Origin: Candidatus Parcubacteria bacterium
GTDB taxonomy: Bacteria; Patescibacteriota; Minisyncoccia; Phycocordibacterales; PALSA-1337
Reading direction: 5' to 3'
Length of the DNA: 64,000 nucleotides
NCBI GenBank assembly: GCA_041158765.1
Contig: JBEBAU010000018.1
Location: forward strand, 2,557-66,556
Shown here piece by piece: positions 4,314 to 45,281 of this stretch. A program made the translations under genes and the position numbers. A model generated the notes under the pieces. The model was not told the DNA's origin and did not search any database. It saw only the letters and a program-made list of their open reading frames with translations. The stretch's first letter is position 1. Each line of letters begins with the position of its first letter.

Positions 4314-5342
4314 ATGGATTTCCCAACACCAATTCCACCATTACCTCTGAATCAGGTAATTTCACAGAAAAAAGTATCGAAACTACTTATTGGTATCGTG
4401 GTCGCGGTTCTCGTGGTAATTCTATTGTTTGTCGCTGGTTTCTTTTTTTCAATGCCACCAAAGTCATTTGTTGTGGGTGATATTGTTACTGTTCCTAAGG
4501 CCACGACACTTTCAAAAGTTGCAGATATGTTAGATGAACGAGGACTTATACGGTCGAAAGATATGTTTAAAATCGCGGCGCTCATGGTCGGAGGTCGCAA
4601 TGGCGCTATGTCTGGAGATTATCTCTTCGATACGCCAGAAAGTGTTTGGACAATTGCATATCGAATTACGCATGCACAGCAGGGTATTGCACGAGTGAAA
4701 GTTACGTTTCCCGAAGGTTTCACTGTGAAAGAAATCGGTGCAACTTTGGTCAAAGCTATTCCAACATTTGATGAAAAAGGTTTTTTGGATGCAGCATCAA
4801 CTTCTGAGGGGTACTTATTCCCTGATACATATTATTTTTTTGGAAATGTTGATCCGGCTGAAGTCGTACGAGTGCTTCGCTCGGAATTTGATCGCAAGTA
4901 TGCTTCAGTTCGAAGTGATCCAGCAATCATGACTGGCAGTGTGTATGGCCGTTCAAAAAAAGACATTGTTACGATGGCGTCAATTGTTGAAAAGGAGGCC
5001 GTTGAGCAAACTGATCGAGAAATGGTTGCGGGAATTCTATGGAAGCGATTGGACAAAGGCATGCTTCTGCAAGTTGATCCGCCATTTCAGTATTTTCTTG
5101 GAAAAACAACATTTGATTTGACGTTTGATGATTTGAAAGTTGATTCACCATATAACACGTACCTTCACAAAGGATTACCACCAACACCAATAGATAATCC
5201 TGGCGTCGATGCATTACGAGCAACAATGCAAGCAAAATCGTCTCCATACTGGTTCTATCTTTCAGATAAAAAAGGGGGAATGCACTATGCTCGAACCTAT
5301 GATGAACACCTTACAAATAGAAGATTGTATCTTGGCAAATAG
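4314..5342 (+). CDS. mltG: Endolytic murein transglycosylase MltG (YceG-like)
   Basis: N-terminal TM anchor, YceG-like domain with the EGYLFPDTYYF motif and a conserved C-terminal region. Confidence 0.8.
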   Translation: MDFPTPIPPLPLNQVISQKKVSKLLIGIVVAVLVVILLFVAGFFFSMPPKSFVVGDIVTVPKATTLSKVADMLDERGLIRSKDMFKIAALMVGGRNGAMSGDYLFDTPESVWTIAYRITHAQQGIARVKVTFPEGFTVKEIGATLVKAIPTFDEKGFLDAASTSEGYLFPDTYYFFGNVDPAEVVRVLRSEFDRKYASVRSDPAIMTGSVYGRSKKDIVTMASIVEKEAVEQTDREMVAGILWKRLDKGMLLQVDPPFQYFLGKTTFDLTFDDLKVDSPYNTYLHKGLPPTPIDNPGVDALRATMQAKSSPYWFYLSDKKGGMHYARTYDEHLTNRRLYLGK

Positions 5343-30489: not shown

Positions 30490-32361
30490 ATGAAAGACGA
30501 AACAAATAAAAAGCAGCAGCTCGAAAAAAAAGAACTTATCGATAAAAAGCAGCTGCTCAATGAGCTCAAAGCGAAAGTTGAAATAATTCGCGGGCATATC
30601 TCAGCTGAACAATTGAAAGTGCGAACGCTTGCCGAAAAGCCACTGAGCGAAATAAAATCTCTCAACCCTGAAGATCAGGTTGTGTATATGAATTTGCGAG
30701 CACAATCGGGGCAACGTCTCCAAGAGCTTGCTGATTTACTCGGAGCGCCGTTTTTTGTGCGATGCGATCTGACATATAAGAGAACAGGCAAAAATCGCGT
30801 GCGCTATTTCGCTAAGTATCATTTCACCGAAGATGATATCTATTCTTGGGTAACACCAGCCGCAACAATTCGTTTTGAAAAACCCGGACATATTCAGTAC
30901 AAATTACCAAATGGCGTGATCGAACAGGCTCTTATGACGCGCAAAGAACAATATATGATTGTTGATGGCAAGATCATTTTCTTTTCGGTTGAGACGATAG
31001 ATATGCCACGGGAGCTCATTCATCAAGAGCATTTTTCTACACGAAAAGGTGGCTTTTTGCTTCCTGAAATTGTTGCAGTGATGGAAAAAGCACAAGATAT
31101 GGTCATTCGCGCTCATCATGTCGGGCCATTTGTGATTTCTGGTCCTGCAGGTTCGGGCAAAACAACGCTAGCTCTCCATCGAGTTGCATATCTTGTGCAG
31201 GCTCCTGACACGGCGGTCCTCTATCCGAGAAGGTCGGTGATGGTTTTTGTTCAGGATAATGGTACGAAGGATTACTTTTCACATCTATTGCCAGAACTTG
31301 GTATTACAGATGTAGAGATAACCACATTTTTTGAGTGGGCATGCGCGATTCTGGATTTGGATTTGAGTCGAGATCAATATGTGCAACGACGAGGAAAGAA
31401 TGAGGTTGAGCAAGATATGCTCGAATTTGAGCGTTTGAAAAAACTGCGAGCAAAAGAAATTCCAAGTTGGAATGAGACAAAAGTTTTTTTGAAAAAGAGC
31501 GCCACGTTCGACCGTATTGATCTTACCGTTGCGCTTGTTTCGTATTTCAAACATCATAAAAAGTTCGAGACAAAACATCAGTATATGTCAGTTGAAAGGA
31601 ATGGTGAATTGAAGGAACGCACTCGCAAAACTCCAATTCAATATTCACTCCTCGTTGTTGATGAATTTCAGAATTATATGCCGGAGCAGCTTGAACTGCT
31701 CAATGCTTGCCTCGACTCCGAAACTCGTTCGGCTGTATATGTGGGGGATATGGCGCAGCAGATTCATGCGGGGACGCTGCGATCGTGGAATGATATTGGT
31801 ATTACCATATCAGGTGATCGCGAAGTTCGATTACAGAAAGTGTATCGAAATACCCGTCAAATTCTCGAATATATTCGTAAGCTTGGATATTCTGTTGAGA
31901 TTCCAGAGGGAATAAAAGATGGTCCGGAAGTTTCAGAAATTACTTTTTCTGAAAATGAAATAGGTGCTAGCCAAAATAGAGATGAAACCACAGAGACAAT
32001 TTCATATATACAAAAACTGCTTGAAAGTCGAGATGGCTTAATTGGCGTAATTGGAAAATCAGAGCAGGATATTTCAGAAATCAAAAAGTATTTTGAAAAT
32101 GGGGCAACGAAAAATCCACGAGTCCACGTCATGACGATGGCTCTCGCACAGGGAGTTGAATTCGATATTGTGTGTATCGTTGGTATGAAAAAAGATATGT
32201 TCTCAATTAGACATTCGCAAGATTTCATCAAACAAGCGCCCGAATTCATCGAGGAAAAGAAAAAGATTCAAAAAGATTTGCTCTATGTTGCGCTTACTCG
32301 AGCAATTAGTGAAATGCATGTGCTTGGTGGTGCACGATTGTCTGAAATTATACAAAAATAA
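30490..32361 (+). CDS. UvrD/Rep-family ATP-dependent DNA helicase, HelD (helicase IV)-like with a coiled-coil N-terminal domain
   Basis: Walker A ISGPAGSGKTTLALHRVAYL; motif II LLVVDEFQNY; C-terminal motifs; start at MKDETNKK with TATAAT 13 nt upstream. Confidence 0.7.
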   Translation: MKDETNKKQQLEKKELIDKKQLLNELKAKVEIIRGHISAEQLKVRTLAEKPLSEIKSLNPEDQVVYMNLRAQSGQRLQELADLLGAPFFVRCDLTYKRTGKNRVRYFAKYHFTEDDIYSWVTPAATIRFEKPGHIQYKLPNGVIEQALMTRKEQYMIVDGKIIFFSVETIDMPRELIHQEHFSTRKGGFLLPEIVAVMEKAQDMVIRAHHVGPFVISGPAGSGKTTLALHRVAYLVQAPDTAVLYPRRSVMVFVQDNGTKDYFSHLLPELGITDVEITTFFEWACAILDLDLSRDQYVQRRGKNEVEQDMLEFERLKKLRAKEIPSWNETKVFLKKSATFDRIDLTVALVSYFKHHKKFETKHQYMSVERNGELKERTRKTPIQYSLLVVDEFQNYMPEQLELLNACLDSETRSAVYVGDMAQQIHAGTLRSWNDIGITISGDREVRLQKVYRNTRQILEYIRKLGYSVEIPEGIKDGPEVSEITFSENEIGASQNRDETTETISYIQKLLESRDGLIGVIGKSEQDISEIKKYFENGATKNPRVHVMTMALAQGVEFDIVCIVGMKKDMFSIRHSQDFIKQAPEFIEEKKKIQKDLLYVALTRAISEMHVLGGARLSEIIQK

Positions 32362-37669: not shown

Positions 37670-37786
37670 GAAAAAGAATTAAGTGTTTCTTTTAGGAAAC
37701 GCCGTCAAAATCTGCTGATTTTGCGGCTCGCTCTCGGATGTCAAACATCCTGCGAGAGTCCTAAAAGAAACACTTAATTCTTTTTC
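37670..37786 (+). ncRNA. Candidate structured 3'-UTR element, copy 1 (28-bp perfect terminal inverted repeat enclosing two hairpins), 4 nt after the rpmE stop
   Basis: Arms gaaaaagaattaagtgtttcttttagga (37670-37697) and the exact reverse complement (37759-37786); internal hairpins caaaatc/gattttg (loop TGCT) and ggatg/catcc + ctctc/gagag with a UGC bulge; homolog at 33205-33325. Confidence 0.35.
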
Positions 37787-38825: not shown

Positions 38826-38912
38826 TTATAAGCAAAAATCTTAATAAGTAAGTTTGTGCCATTTTTATTATCTGATATACTGTTTATACAGTGGCCTTTG
38901 GGCTCCGAGATT

Positions 38913-38940
38913 CCCCGCTTCACGGCGGGGTTTCGTTTTG
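38913..38940. terminator. Hairpin ccccgc ttcacg gcgggg + tttcgtttt, overlapping the stop of the minus-strand toxin gene; bidirectional
   Basis: Seen in sequence downstream of prfA. Confidence 0.5.
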
Positions 38941-39345
38941 TATAACACCAAGCAGTATGAAGGATAATTTCGCTACTACTCGATAAAATGTGAGTACTTT
39001 GAGTCTAGAAATTTTACGAAGGAGGCGCTTGCTGCTAATAGTTCTAATTTGCGACAAGATGAGTTGTGAGGTGTCACCGGTGCTTTGAGTTGAAATCCGA
39101 TATTCACTATCAATAATCTTACTCGTGAAGGGGATTACCCACAGTATATCTTTGGTTACCTTTTTTAAGATAAGTACTGGCCGTTCAAAATTTTCATGTT
39201 TCCCGTCTTGTTCAGATCCTACGTTTACACCAAGTGCGCACCACCAGATTTCGCGTTCATGAAAGAAATCCTCGAATTTTTCAAGATCAAGTTTTTTTAT
39301 TCTCGTATTCCATGAGTCAAAATCTTTTATGTAGCTATTATTCAT
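38920..39345 (-). CDS. PemK/MazF-family (Kid-like) endoribonuclease toxin homolog, with no cognate antitoxin gene evident
   Basis: REIWWCALGVNVGSEQDGKHENFERPVLILKK...VIPFTSK aligns to the PemK/Kid core GEIWLVSLDPTAGHEQQGTRPVLIV...VVPVTS; the C-terminal region is also similar. Confidence 0.5.
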   Translation of the reverse strand: MNNSYIKDFDSWNTRIKKLDLEKFEDFFHEREIWWCALGVNVGSEQDGKHENFERPVLILKKVTKDILWVIPFTSKIIDSEYRISTQSTGDTSQLILSQIRTISSKRLLRKISRLKVLTFYRVVAKLSFILLGVIQNETPP

Positions 39346-39463
39346 ATCTTTACTGTAACAAATAGATATGAAATCTTAATAAAAAATAAAATTGACAAGA
39401 TAGTGATATCTGTGTTAATTTCATTGGGAACTGACGGCAAACCAACAACCAAATTGAAAAACT

Positions 39464-39931
39464 ATGAGCGTAATGACTGCTGTGGATCTCGTAATGAATC
39501 CCAATCGGCCGCTTCTGGAAGCGTTCCTCGCGAATAACTTCCTTAAATTCCGGATTAACCCACGACTTCTTGATGAATCCAAATTCCCTCGGAATCCAGA
39601 ATTGAAGGTGGATCGCTTAATGGCGCATTTCTTCCAGTCGCCCGCTGGCTGTATGCTCGACGAGCTTCCCAAGGAAATGGCCGAACAGATGATGATTCGT
39701 CCGCCTGATGATATTCGCGAAGTTATTGCTCTCGGGAAAATCCTCAAAAATAACTGTGACTATTGGATCTACGCGCCCAAGATTACGGGTTCGACTGATT
39801 TGTTTCTTCGGATCATGCGTCACGATGAGTGGGCGGGTTATGGCATGACGATTTCGCGGCTTCTTGACGCTGAAAAGAATCTCTGGGACCTCGACCAGAT
39901 CGGGTTCTCGAATACGGGCACCGGAGCGTAA
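39464..39931 (+). CDS. Hypothetical protein (GC-elevated)
   Basis: 155-aa ORF with balanced composition; the overlapping minus-strand ORF is Ser/Arg-rich antisense-like. Confidence 0.35.
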   Translation: MSVMTAVDLVMNPNRPLLEAFLANNFLKFRINPRLLDESKFPRNPELKVDRLMAHFFQSPAGCMLDELPKEMAEQMMIRPPDDIREVIALGKILKNNCDYWIYAPKITGSTDLFLRIMRHDEWAGYGMTISRLLDAEKNLWDLDQIGFSNTGTGA

Positions 39932-40037
39932 TTTTTACTACCTGCGTTTATCGCGGGTTTTTTCTTTTCTGGGGCTCAATATAGAGGGGAGGTTGCAAAA
40001 AAGCCCTGTATTTGGTACACTCTCCCCACATTATTTT

Positions 40038-44824: not shown

Positions 44825-45058
44825 ATGCTATATTCAGTATCAATGAAGAGTAAAAAACTCCGTTTTGATGTCTTTTTTGAAAGTGGCTGGTATACAGCGT
44901 CATGTCTCGATGCGTTTATTGTTACGCAAGGGAAGACTTTCAAAGTGCTTGAGATGAATATTCGCGAGGCAGTTGAGTTGCATTTTGCTGATGAAATCAA
45001 AAAGAAGCTATTCAATCCAGTTATTTCCTTGAAGTACGTTTTGTCCGCGAATGCCTAA
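44825..45058 (+). CDS. hicB: HicB-family antitoxin (UPF0150 fold)
   Basis: FESGWYTASCLDAFIVTQGKTFKVLEMNIREAVELHF resembles the HicB/UPF0150 core; overlaps the downstream hicA by 8 nt. Confidence 0.55.
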   Translation: MLYSVSMKSKKLRFDVFFESGWYTASCLDAFIVTQGKTFKVLEMNIREAVELHFADEIKKKLFNPVISLKYVLSANA

Positions 45059-45281
45059 ATTAAAAGTCTTGTCGTCAAAGGACATTACAAAAATGTTCAG
45101 TGATTTTGGATTTGAGCACATTAATACAAAAGGAAGTCATATACACATGAGATACAGAGGTATATTAGCCACAATTCCTCTAAGTGCAGAGATACCAAAA
45201 GGCACACTCAAGGCAATATATAGACAGGCTGCAATTGTAATTCCAAAAGCTGAACTTGATGCAATGTTTTATACAAAATAG
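45051..45281 (+). CDS. hicA: HicA-family mRNA interferase toxin (YcfA-like)
   Basis: LKVLSSKDITKMFSDFGFEHINTKGSHIHMRY...IPLSAEIPKGTLKAIYRQAAI matches the HicA signature (GSH...G, GTL..I..QAG-like). Confidence 0.6.
   Translation: MPKLKVLSSKDITKMFSDFGFEHINTKGSHIHMRYRGILATIPLSAEIPKGTLKAIYRQAAIVIPKAELDAMFYTK

Follow-up and report, generated by a model that had tools for sequence, protein, structure and literature searches.

A predicted PemK/MazF-family toxin and a convergent small RNA form a candidate type I-like toxin-antitoxin cassette between prfA and rpsB of a Parcubacteria genome

In a 64,000-nt stretch of DNA from a Candidatus Parcubacteria bacterium (GenBank assembly GCA_041158765.1, contig JBEBAU010000018.1, positions 2,557 to 66,556 of the forward strand; here referred to as the window, with positions counted from its first nucleotide), we examined the islet between prfA and rpsB, which carries a gene of the PemK/MazF toxin family. 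Convergent with this gene we identified a second one, encoding a predicted small RNA (sRNA) of ~52 nt. The RNase gene has a weak promoter and the RNA gene a strong one, the terminator of the latter overlaps the toxin stop codon, and the two genes are strictly co-inherited. We read the locus as a type I-like toxin/antisense-RNA cassette of ~0.5 kb inserted between prfA and rpsB, a reading to which we give about an even chance of being right, and in which the sRNA, as we infer, would be the antitoxin. We place it among the toxin-antitoxin (TA) modules as a type I variant whose toxin has the MazF fold. The sRNA counts given below come from about 80 fetched homologous loci (650 kb) and the window.

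A PemK/MazF-family toxin with no recognizable protein antitoxin

The toxin gene (38920-39345, minus strand) encodes a protein of 141 aa, which had been assigned to PemK/MazF in a preliminary description of this DNA, and profile searches supported that assignment. The protein matched Pfam PF02452 PemK_toxin with 46.1 bits (E 6.4e-12, cut-off 23.1 bits, profile positions 3-108 of 109), as well as PHROG 9567 'MazF-like growth inhibitor' at 8e-16, from residue 8. Among the matches listed, PF02452 was present in 120 of 120 homologs. The AlphaFold2 model, built with 109 homologs, had a mean predicted local distance difference test (pLDDT) of 85, and the best 50 matches that Foldseek returned for it from the PDB were all MazF/PemK, with a probability of 1.0 and template modelling (TM) scores of 0.69-0.80. 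In the profile alignment to Bacillus subtilis MazF, R55, which is invariant in the family, fell on the Arg of the GGVRPVL segment of 4MDX, and the near-invariant T74 fell on the Thr of its ITAQ segment. The matched residues are Arg25 and Thr48 of RNA-bound B. subtilis MazF (4MDX), numbered here by counting along the 4MDX sequence, which we take to be the catalytic residues of that enzyme. We predict that the toxin is a catalytically intact MazF/PemK-fold endoribonuclease. It was 100% identical to a protein from a Candidatus Parcubacteria metagenome-assembled genome (MAG).

Although PF02452, the fold and the catalytic Arg/Thr are shared with MazEF, PemIK and Kis-Kid, the toxin differs from MazEF/PemIK in the lack of a MazE/PemI-type gene, in an extra N-terminal helix (residues ~9-21) and in a loop insertion before Arg55. 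The helix is family-specific and was confidently modelled by AlphaFold2. The loop insertion had already been noticed and put at ~6 aa; the insertion itself holds, and the family profile alignment gives it 5 residues relative to B. subtilis MazF.

An antitoxin-sized open reading frame (ORF) upstream of the toxin was missing according to the preliminary description, and the wider survey agreed with it. When ORFs of at least 30 aa within 500 nt of 79 homologous toxin genes were clustered, no family was found in more than 5 loci, and the flanking families that recurred in up to 5 of the 79 were housekeeping neighbours of related genomes. Homologs at 60-72% identity were single genes at varied sites: after RNase III, after RNase H, or beside a tRNA synthetase. 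As for the short peptide frame also reported upstream, the only such frame there is one of 36 aa with a TTG start (39342-39452, minus strand), which overlaps the toxin ATG (ATGA overlap); the 24-aa frame originally named was not conserved. The 36-aa frame was rejected as an antitoxin, as it was not conserved in the homologous loci and lies upstream of the predicted toxin promoter. An adjacent co-transcribed protein antitoxin, by which type II MazEF/PemIK systems are recognized, was absent from the toxin locus, and by these comparisons the toxin is without a protein antitoxin.

The predicted toxin promoter consists of an extended -10 box, TGtTACAGT (39352-39360, minus strand), 6 nt before the ATG. 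A -10-like box ending 6-7 nt before the toxin start was found in 47% of 75 homologous loci, compared with 20% of control ORFs. No Shine-Dalgarno (SD) motif precedes the toxin start in the window, and SD-like motifs preceded ~7% of the genes in about 75 toxin loci and 368 control ORFs (L011-L090). With the -10 box 6 nt from the ATG, the toxin mRNA would be leaderless or near-leaderless, which leaves no space for an upstream co-transcribed gene; a weak promoter probably drives a leaderless toxin mRNA. A -10-like box 6 nt before the start codon was also present in 14% of the same 368 control ORFs, and leaderless mRNAs appear to be common in these genomes of the Candidate Phyla Radiation (CPR). 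In the closest subfamily, phased T-rich direct repeats (ATTTTATC, TTTTCTTTA and TTCTTAATAACTTTTT, with a spacing of ~11 bp) were observed upstream of the toxin promoter, at about -20 to -90 of the toxin start in L001, L005, L011-L017, L020, L035 and L047. Perhaps these repeats are an operator or a curved-DNA element.

A conserved sRNA gene convergent with the toxin gene

Comparison of the homologous loci at the DNA level showed that almost all toxin homologs have a conserved element at their 3′ end. In the family alignment, the C-terminal tails ETPPVKAGNLGARRPL, ETPPISGESRSPK and NLAAERGISEP of different homologs resembled one nucleotide sequence read in three frames. The tails of the gene models P0026, P0028, P0037, P0050, P0055, P0060 and P0075 (ETPP..GNLGARRP, ..GESRSPK and ..ERGISEP in alignment A1) are the translated sRNA gene. 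Gene callers had read through it in different frames, so that the tails are spurious C-terminal extensions rather than peptide motifs.

The near-consensus sRNA promoter in the window, on the plus strand, has a -35 box TTGTGC (38854-38859) and, after a 16-nt spacer, a -10 box TATACT (38876-38881). The predicted sRNA (38888-38939, plus strand), at which the transcription start site (TSS) was placed from the spacing to the -10 box, is ~52 nt long and ends in a U-rich tail. Its fold, with a predicted dG of -21.8 kcal/mol, comprises the hairpin P2 (38893-38896 paired with 38901-38904), a single-stranded UCCGA (38904-38908) that is near-invariant in the family, and the extended terminator helix P1 (38909-38934), with a core of 38913-38919 paired with 38924-38930 and the loop UCAC at 38920-38923. 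The toxin stop codon (38920-38922) lies within the P1 loop of this hairpin, CCCCGCU/UCAC/GGCGGGG. It had been proposed that the toxin stops inside the terminator of prfA; the stop is indeed within a hairpin loop, and the hairpin is better ascribed to a separate sRNA gene as its own terminator, which may also stop read-through from prfA.

Across the family, the gene begins with a -35 box TTGACA/TTGACT and a -10 box TATACT/TATAAT, about 7 nt from the predicted start, followed in the 5′ to 3′ direction by P2 (often with a UUCG loop), YCCGA, a GC-rich P1 with a GA/UC extension at its base, and the tail GUUUCGnUUUU. The -35 box was TTGAC[A/T] in 60 of 81 loci, with TATAMT as the -10 box and a spacer of 16-17 nt. 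The mean promoter match was 10.0 out of 12 for the sRNA genes versus 7.7 for shuffles and 7.9 for the toxin promoters (p about 2e-19). The sequence CGAAAC raised the idea of a hammerhead or another self-cleaving ribozyme, which was discarded on inspection of the sequence, as the core lacks CUGANGA and the stem is not followed by a U.

Iterated nhmmer searches of the fetched loci and the window gave 83 instances of the sRNA, all antisense to the toxin and nearly all abutting its 3′ end. The covariance model built for the family, R1, had 82 matches in 650 kb of CPR loci, again all antisense, and scored the window copy with 79.2 bits (E 2e-14). Within these about 650 kb, the matches were found only at or beside toxin genes, and the sRNA stood beside ~90% or more of the roughly 80 toxin loci examined. 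In most loci, its 3′ end and the toxin stop are about 0-15 nt apart; where the gene models extend further, this end falls inside the ORF. Four R1 matches were not flush with a toxin stop: extra copies in L012, L038 and L070, and a copy in L030 located 280 nt downstream. The tandem or extra upstream copies (4396-4493 and 4524-4608 in L012, 4372-4456 and 4461-4548 in L038, and 3885-3964 in L070) could be vestiges of tandem cassettes or else a variant in gene dosage.

The two helices are supported by compensatory changes. In the R1 alignment, 97.3% of the cells pair, compared with 45-69% when the partners were slid; double changes were found in 10 of 11 pairs, with 130 double-change cells versus at most 24 in the slid controls; and the covariation score was 0.441 versus at most 0.082 for slid and 0.123 for shuffled alignments. 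RNAalifold recovered the same helices from an independent MAFFT alignment. The strand is indicated by 26 G-U pairs on the sRNA strand versus 4 A-C pairs, which would be G-U on the toxin strand. Taken from the covariation, the promoter and the terminator, the convergent sRNA gene is real.

No Rfam family reached its threshold at the locus, and sub-threshold matches to rnk_pseudo and to microRNA (miRNA) families were judged to be chance. The pemK RNA motif, RF02913, described as a cis-regulatory element, resembles the window sRNA in being a conserved RNA associated with pemK genes; it had no match in the window (E <=1) or in 8 diverse loci (E <=10). No description of the sRNA was found in the literature searched. 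On the evidence of the alignments, it is a conserved CPR family absent from Rfam.

With an RNA partner at hand, the idea of a TA pair with an RNA antitoxin fared well in part, although the RNA is downstream, convergent and single-copy instead of an upstream antisense or repeat RNA. Searches for the upstream forms returned nothing: Tandem Repeats Finder (TRF) detected no tandem repeats at a score of at least 30 in the window locus, and no repeat families were found upstream of the toxin. A decaying module, also suggested earlier, is contradicted, since the ORF is intact, the catalytic residues are kept, the toxin family is present in at least 580 species-level genomes of Patescibacteria, and the RNA lies beside nearly every toxin gene (80 loci).

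Comparison with known toxin-antitoxin classes

In type I systems, convergent antisense RNAs that overlap the 3′ end of the toxin gene are known from txpA/RatA and bsrG/SR4 of B. subtilis and from par RNA I/RNA II of Enterococcus faecalis. The locus in the window resembles them in its tail-to-tail pair of genes, in the stronger promoter of the RNA, and in an overlap at, or a sharing of, the terminator. By sequence evidence, it has the cis-encoded small RNA overlapping the toxin transcript that characterizes type I, and complementarity of the sRNA to the 3′ end of the toxin mRNA would be built in if the toxin transcript reads through. The toxins of txpA, bsrG and par are, on the other hand, small hydrophobic membrane peptides; such a peptide is not present here, the toxin being a soluble 141-aa protein with the fold of a MazF RNase. 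The par system also has 5′ complementary repeats, whereas the window sRNA is without 5′ complementarity.

The type III toxins (ToxIN, CptIN, TenpIN and AbiQ) have a MazF/Kid-like endoribonuclease fold and an RNA antitoxin, which consists of tandem repeats located upstream in the same orientation, with a terminator between the repeats and the toxin gene (PMC5086642). They share compactness and mobility with the cassette in the window, and many are carried by phages or plasmids. Their RNA is also processed by the toxin and belongs to the same operon, whereas the RNA in the window is a single-copy convergent unit without repeats, and a layout of upstream repeats and terminator was not found. Neither does the toxin belong to ToxN/AbiQ, CptN or TenpN, as the only match was to CptIN NF047359 with 13 bits against a cut-off of 90.

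Counterparts in Campylobacterota

A tblastn search of phage and plasmid records identified the same PemK subfamily in Campylobacterota only, namely in CJIE4 prophages, on pVir, and on plasmids of Helicobacter and Nitratiruptor. These proteins carry the N-terminal FD.WN..KK helix and the loop insertion too. In the CJIE4 prophage, the PemK gene is solo, between terminase and portal, and the best R1 match in the locus, though weak (15.8 bits, E 0.07), is antisense and exactly at the toxin 3′ end. Inspection showed that the genes are tail-to-tail in Helicobacter and Nitratiruptor as well, and the two RNAs of Helicobacter have compensatory changes relative to each other.

The pVir homolog is CJJ81176_pVir0047 (30634-31038, plus strand). 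It shares 31% identity with the window toxin, the FD.WN..KK helix with its invariant Trp, and the loop insertion, and, as in the window, no adjacent protein antitoxin is annotated. According to the pVir entries consulted in Dugar et al. 2013 (PMC3656092), the 77-nt sRNA CJpv3 is encoded on the minus strand (31119-31043), convergent with pVir0047, was detected by Northern blot, and far exceeds the other pVir TSS rows considered in its read value. The CJpv3 terminator, CCCCG...CGGGG, is 5 nt from the pVir0047 stop. Both loci have a short sRNA with a strong promoter, convergent with the PemK gene and ending near its stop. They differ in that the pVir RNA is 77 nt long with three hairpins, whereas that of the window is ~52 nt with two, with no detectable homology between the RNAs; in the 26-nt 5′ untranslated region (UTR) of pVir0047 (PMC3656092), where the window toxin is apparently leaderless; and in their carriers, a conjugative plasmid of an epsilonproteobacterium and the chromosome of a Parcubacteria MAG, respectively.

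Campylobacter also offers a precedent for RNA control, since PMC7826846 and PMC10470494 cite Shen et al. 2016 for CjrA as the experimentally validated antisense RNA antitoxin of the type I system CjrA/CjpT on pVir. CjpT and CjrA are probably pVir0047 and CJpv3. No link of CJpv3 or pVir0047 to CjrA/CjpT was found in the literature searched, and the alternative for CjrA/CjpT is the CJpv2 region, whose neighbour pVir0033 was without any Pfam match.

Proposed mechanism and alternative explanations

In the proposed mechanism, the sRNA would be made in excess from its strong promoter on the strand opposite the toxin, and would base-pair with the toxin mRNA at its complementary 3′ end. Since the P1 hairpin has no good U-tract on the toxin strand in the window, toxin transcripts should read into the sRNA gene. 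Pairing would trigger cleavage of the duplex and decay, and less toxin would be made, as in type I systems with 3′-overlapping convergent RNAs. Upon loss of the cassette, or when RNA synthesis stops, the shorter-lived sRNA would be gone and the RNase would act. We prefer this type I-like reading because the antisense geometry is strictly conserved and Campylobacter provides a precedent.

Several observations weigh against it. Transcription of the CPR sRNA is deduced from its promoter, terminator and covariation, and the toxicity of the 141-aa protein is a prediction. The presence of a second pVir sRNA, CJpv2, leaves the equation of CjpT with pVir0047 and of CjrA with CJpv3 presumptive, and R1 does not score the RNAs of pVir, Helicobacter and Nitratiruptor, and that of CJIE4 only weakly. 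As the overlap with the ORF is only 0-15 nt in most loci, antisense pairing would depend on the toxin 3′ UTR; at the toxin 5′ end and start region, complementarity to the sRNA was not beyond the non-cognate background (p = 0.89). The UCCGA linker and P2 are conserved across lineages with toxins only about 45% identical, and the sRNA loops are mostly rigid UUCG or GNRA tetraloops, all of which a pure cis-antisense action leaves unexplained. Together with the small overlap and the absent 5′ pairing, these features keep a type III-like binding of the protein alive.

Under that explanation, the ~52-nt RNA would be a single-copy, trans-acting inhibitor of a true MazF toxin: it would bind the RNase directly, with UCCGA between the helices occupying the active site as a pseudo-substrate or slowly cleaved decoy, and convergence would serve compactness. 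We regard it as possible but rather unlikely. The UCCGA and the shape of P2 are kept across deep divergence where antisense pairing needs neither, the loops are rigid tetraloops instead of kissing-loop motifs, and the overlap of the sRNA with the ORF is minimal; inhibition of this fold by RNA has a precedent in the type III toxins (PMC5086642), to which the marginal 13-bit NCBIfam match to the CptIN toxin also points. Yet tandem repeats are absent, the RNA lies downstream of the toxin gene and in the opposite orientation, the toxin genuinely belongs to PF02452 and not to ToxN, CptN or TenpN, and the strict tail-to-tail antisense geometry would be left unexplained. The Campylobacter RNA antitoxin is moreover described as antisense, type I, in PMC7826846 and PMC10470494. 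We also considered UCCGA as a cleavage site that the toxin avoids in its own gene, and dropped the idea, as it was not depleted in the 79 toxin ORFs (14 observed versus 15.9 expected), which likewise speaks against the decoy. If true, such an inhibitor would represent a type III-like action in a type I-like gene architecture, would link the type II (protein) and type III (RNA) antitoxin branches of the MazF/Kid fold, and would establish a regulatory RNA family of phylum-wide distribution in the CPR.

The remaining explanations abandon the pairing of a toxin with its RNA antitoxin. The protein might be a dedicated RNase or ribonucleoprotein (RNP) partner of the sRNA, working in processing, defence or regulation on other targets, for which the very tight linkage of RNA and protein, the conserved RNA sequence, the wide distribution of the module in reduced CPR genomes, and the homologs located between prophage terminase and portal, a typical site of defence or moron genes, could be adduced. 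We consider this improbable, as the protein has the fold and catalytic residues of a classical MazF toxin, the cassette resembles TA modules in its patchy distribution, mobility and multiple copies, the strong RNA promoter next to a weak protein promoter fits the logic of an antitoxin in excess, and PADLOC gave no match for the locus. A truly solo toxin, controlled by its N-terminal helix or by an unlinked antitoxin, with the element being a shared bidirectional terminator plus an unrelated promoter, seems very improbable to us. The family-specific, confidently modelled helix would suit it, as would the A-rich and U-rich flanks of P1 in many loci, which resemble a bidirectional terminator; but a mere terminator gives no reason for ~80 loci to have retained a conserved promoter at constant spacing, another covarying hairpin and a linker that hardly varies, and the pVir counterpart transcript is, in the data consulted from PMC3656092, an abundant discrete 77-nt RNA. 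It is highly improbable that the hairpins are conserved for a role at the DNA level rather than as RNA, such as a site for the recombination or transposition of a mobile cassette. Host duplications of 12-80 nt do flank the cassette in several loci and its position differs between genomes, yet the promoter and the U-tail are on one strand only, the G-U asymmetry is 26 versus 4, clustering of the flanking ORFs of 79 loci linked no recombinase or transposase to it, and the element is at only one end of the cassette.

If the type I-like reading is right, the 'orphan' or 'type II' annotation that MazF/PemK genes routinely receive when no antitoxin is beside them misses, in this case, a small RNA partner which is invisible to protein-based annotation. 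The comparison with Campylobacterota suggests RNA control of the entire PemK subfamily marked by this N-terminal helix and loop insertion, and pVir of Campylobacter is an experimentally tractable relative of this cassette of uncultured CPR bacteria. For Patescibacteria, the sRNA would be one of the earliest small RNA families of wide conservation to be described, and it would be a ready seed for a new family.

Insertion site and mobility of the cassette

In the closest relatives (63-70% PrfA identity), the gene order is rpmE-prfA-rpsB-tsf with a prfA-rpsB spacer of 70-110 nt, compared with 1212 nt in the window, which bears out the earlier view that an islet interrupts this neighbourhood. The right edge of the insertion is marked by the retained rpsB promoter (39993-40021, plus strand; TTGCAA, 17 nt, TACACT), as the same motif was found in the spacer of the relatives. 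Other relatives carry unrelated insertions in the same spacer (L112 4470-5749, L154 4494-5576 and L095 1421-1873, with hypothetical ORFs of 297 and 210 aa), making it an insertion hotspot.

Within the islet, the toxin and sRNA genes are flanked by a perfect 12-bp direct repeat, AAATCTTAATAA, whose left copy is at 38836-38847 and right copy at 39371-39382, with a cassette of 523 bp (38848-39370) between them; non-cognate controls never exceeded 11 nt. Other cassettes are bracketed by imperfect host duplications of 25-80 nt, which are different in each locus: L074 (3912/4567, where the duplicated sequence is the 3′ end of the upstream gene), L068 (3842/4512), L023 (3850/4607), L069, L042 and L054. 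These duplications suggest that the cassette was inserted either with a target duplication of variable length or by integration through a single crossover. The toxin and sRNA pair occupies a different genomic position in each lineage and has several copies in some genomes, and the cassette is apparently mobile. The differing positions, the multiple copies and the flanking host duplications make a solo toxin domesticated by its host, another earlier proposal, unlikely. Among the IMG/VR viral contigs, a search with an exact 17-mer of the cassette gave only 4 chance matches in GC-rich coding DNA.

Neighbouring genes and minor observations

The other gene of the islet, on the plus strand (39464-39931), encodes 155 aa (152 aa by gene callers) and has its own promoter-like site; with its terminator (39940-39958, plus strand) it is a second, independent unit of the islet. 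Its GC content is 0.46-0.49, compared with about 0.42 around it and 0.32-0.40 over the toxin gene, so the elevated GC previously ascribed to it holds. It is not without relatives, however: an ORFan in a k-mer-filtered search, it had 11 full-length relatives with 30-49% identity in an exhaustive phmmer search, which makes it a member of a rare family. Four strain copies of the gene were 100% identical. We considered its product as a protein antitoxin and rejected it, as it bears no relation to the genes beside other toxins and its fold does not resemble that of an antitoxin; none of the 3 relatives examined in their contigs was beside a PemK gene.

A Y-shaped hairpin of ~117 nt (37670-37786) was observed between rpmE and prfA, with a 27-bp perfect outer stem and a dG of -64.8 kcal/mol (z -11.6). 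This very stable structure occurs only once in the window and gave rise to the spurious sub-threshold miRNA match. The rpmE-prfA gap is a few nt in the closest relative, L091, so the hairpin may be another small insertion; in other relatives the gap is up to about 230 nt.

A second TA-like pair was observed between pheT and gyrB, where a 77-aa gene (44825-45058, plus strand) overlaps a 76-aa gene of the HicA family (45051-45281, plus strand), the Pfam HicA_toxin assignment of the latter being taken from the identical contig L007. In L055, a Kaiserbacteria contig, a full-length LOOT RNA, RF03000 (6571-6690, plus strand; 75 bits, gathering score 46), was detected about 2 kb from a toxin cassette, and it is probably unrelated to it.

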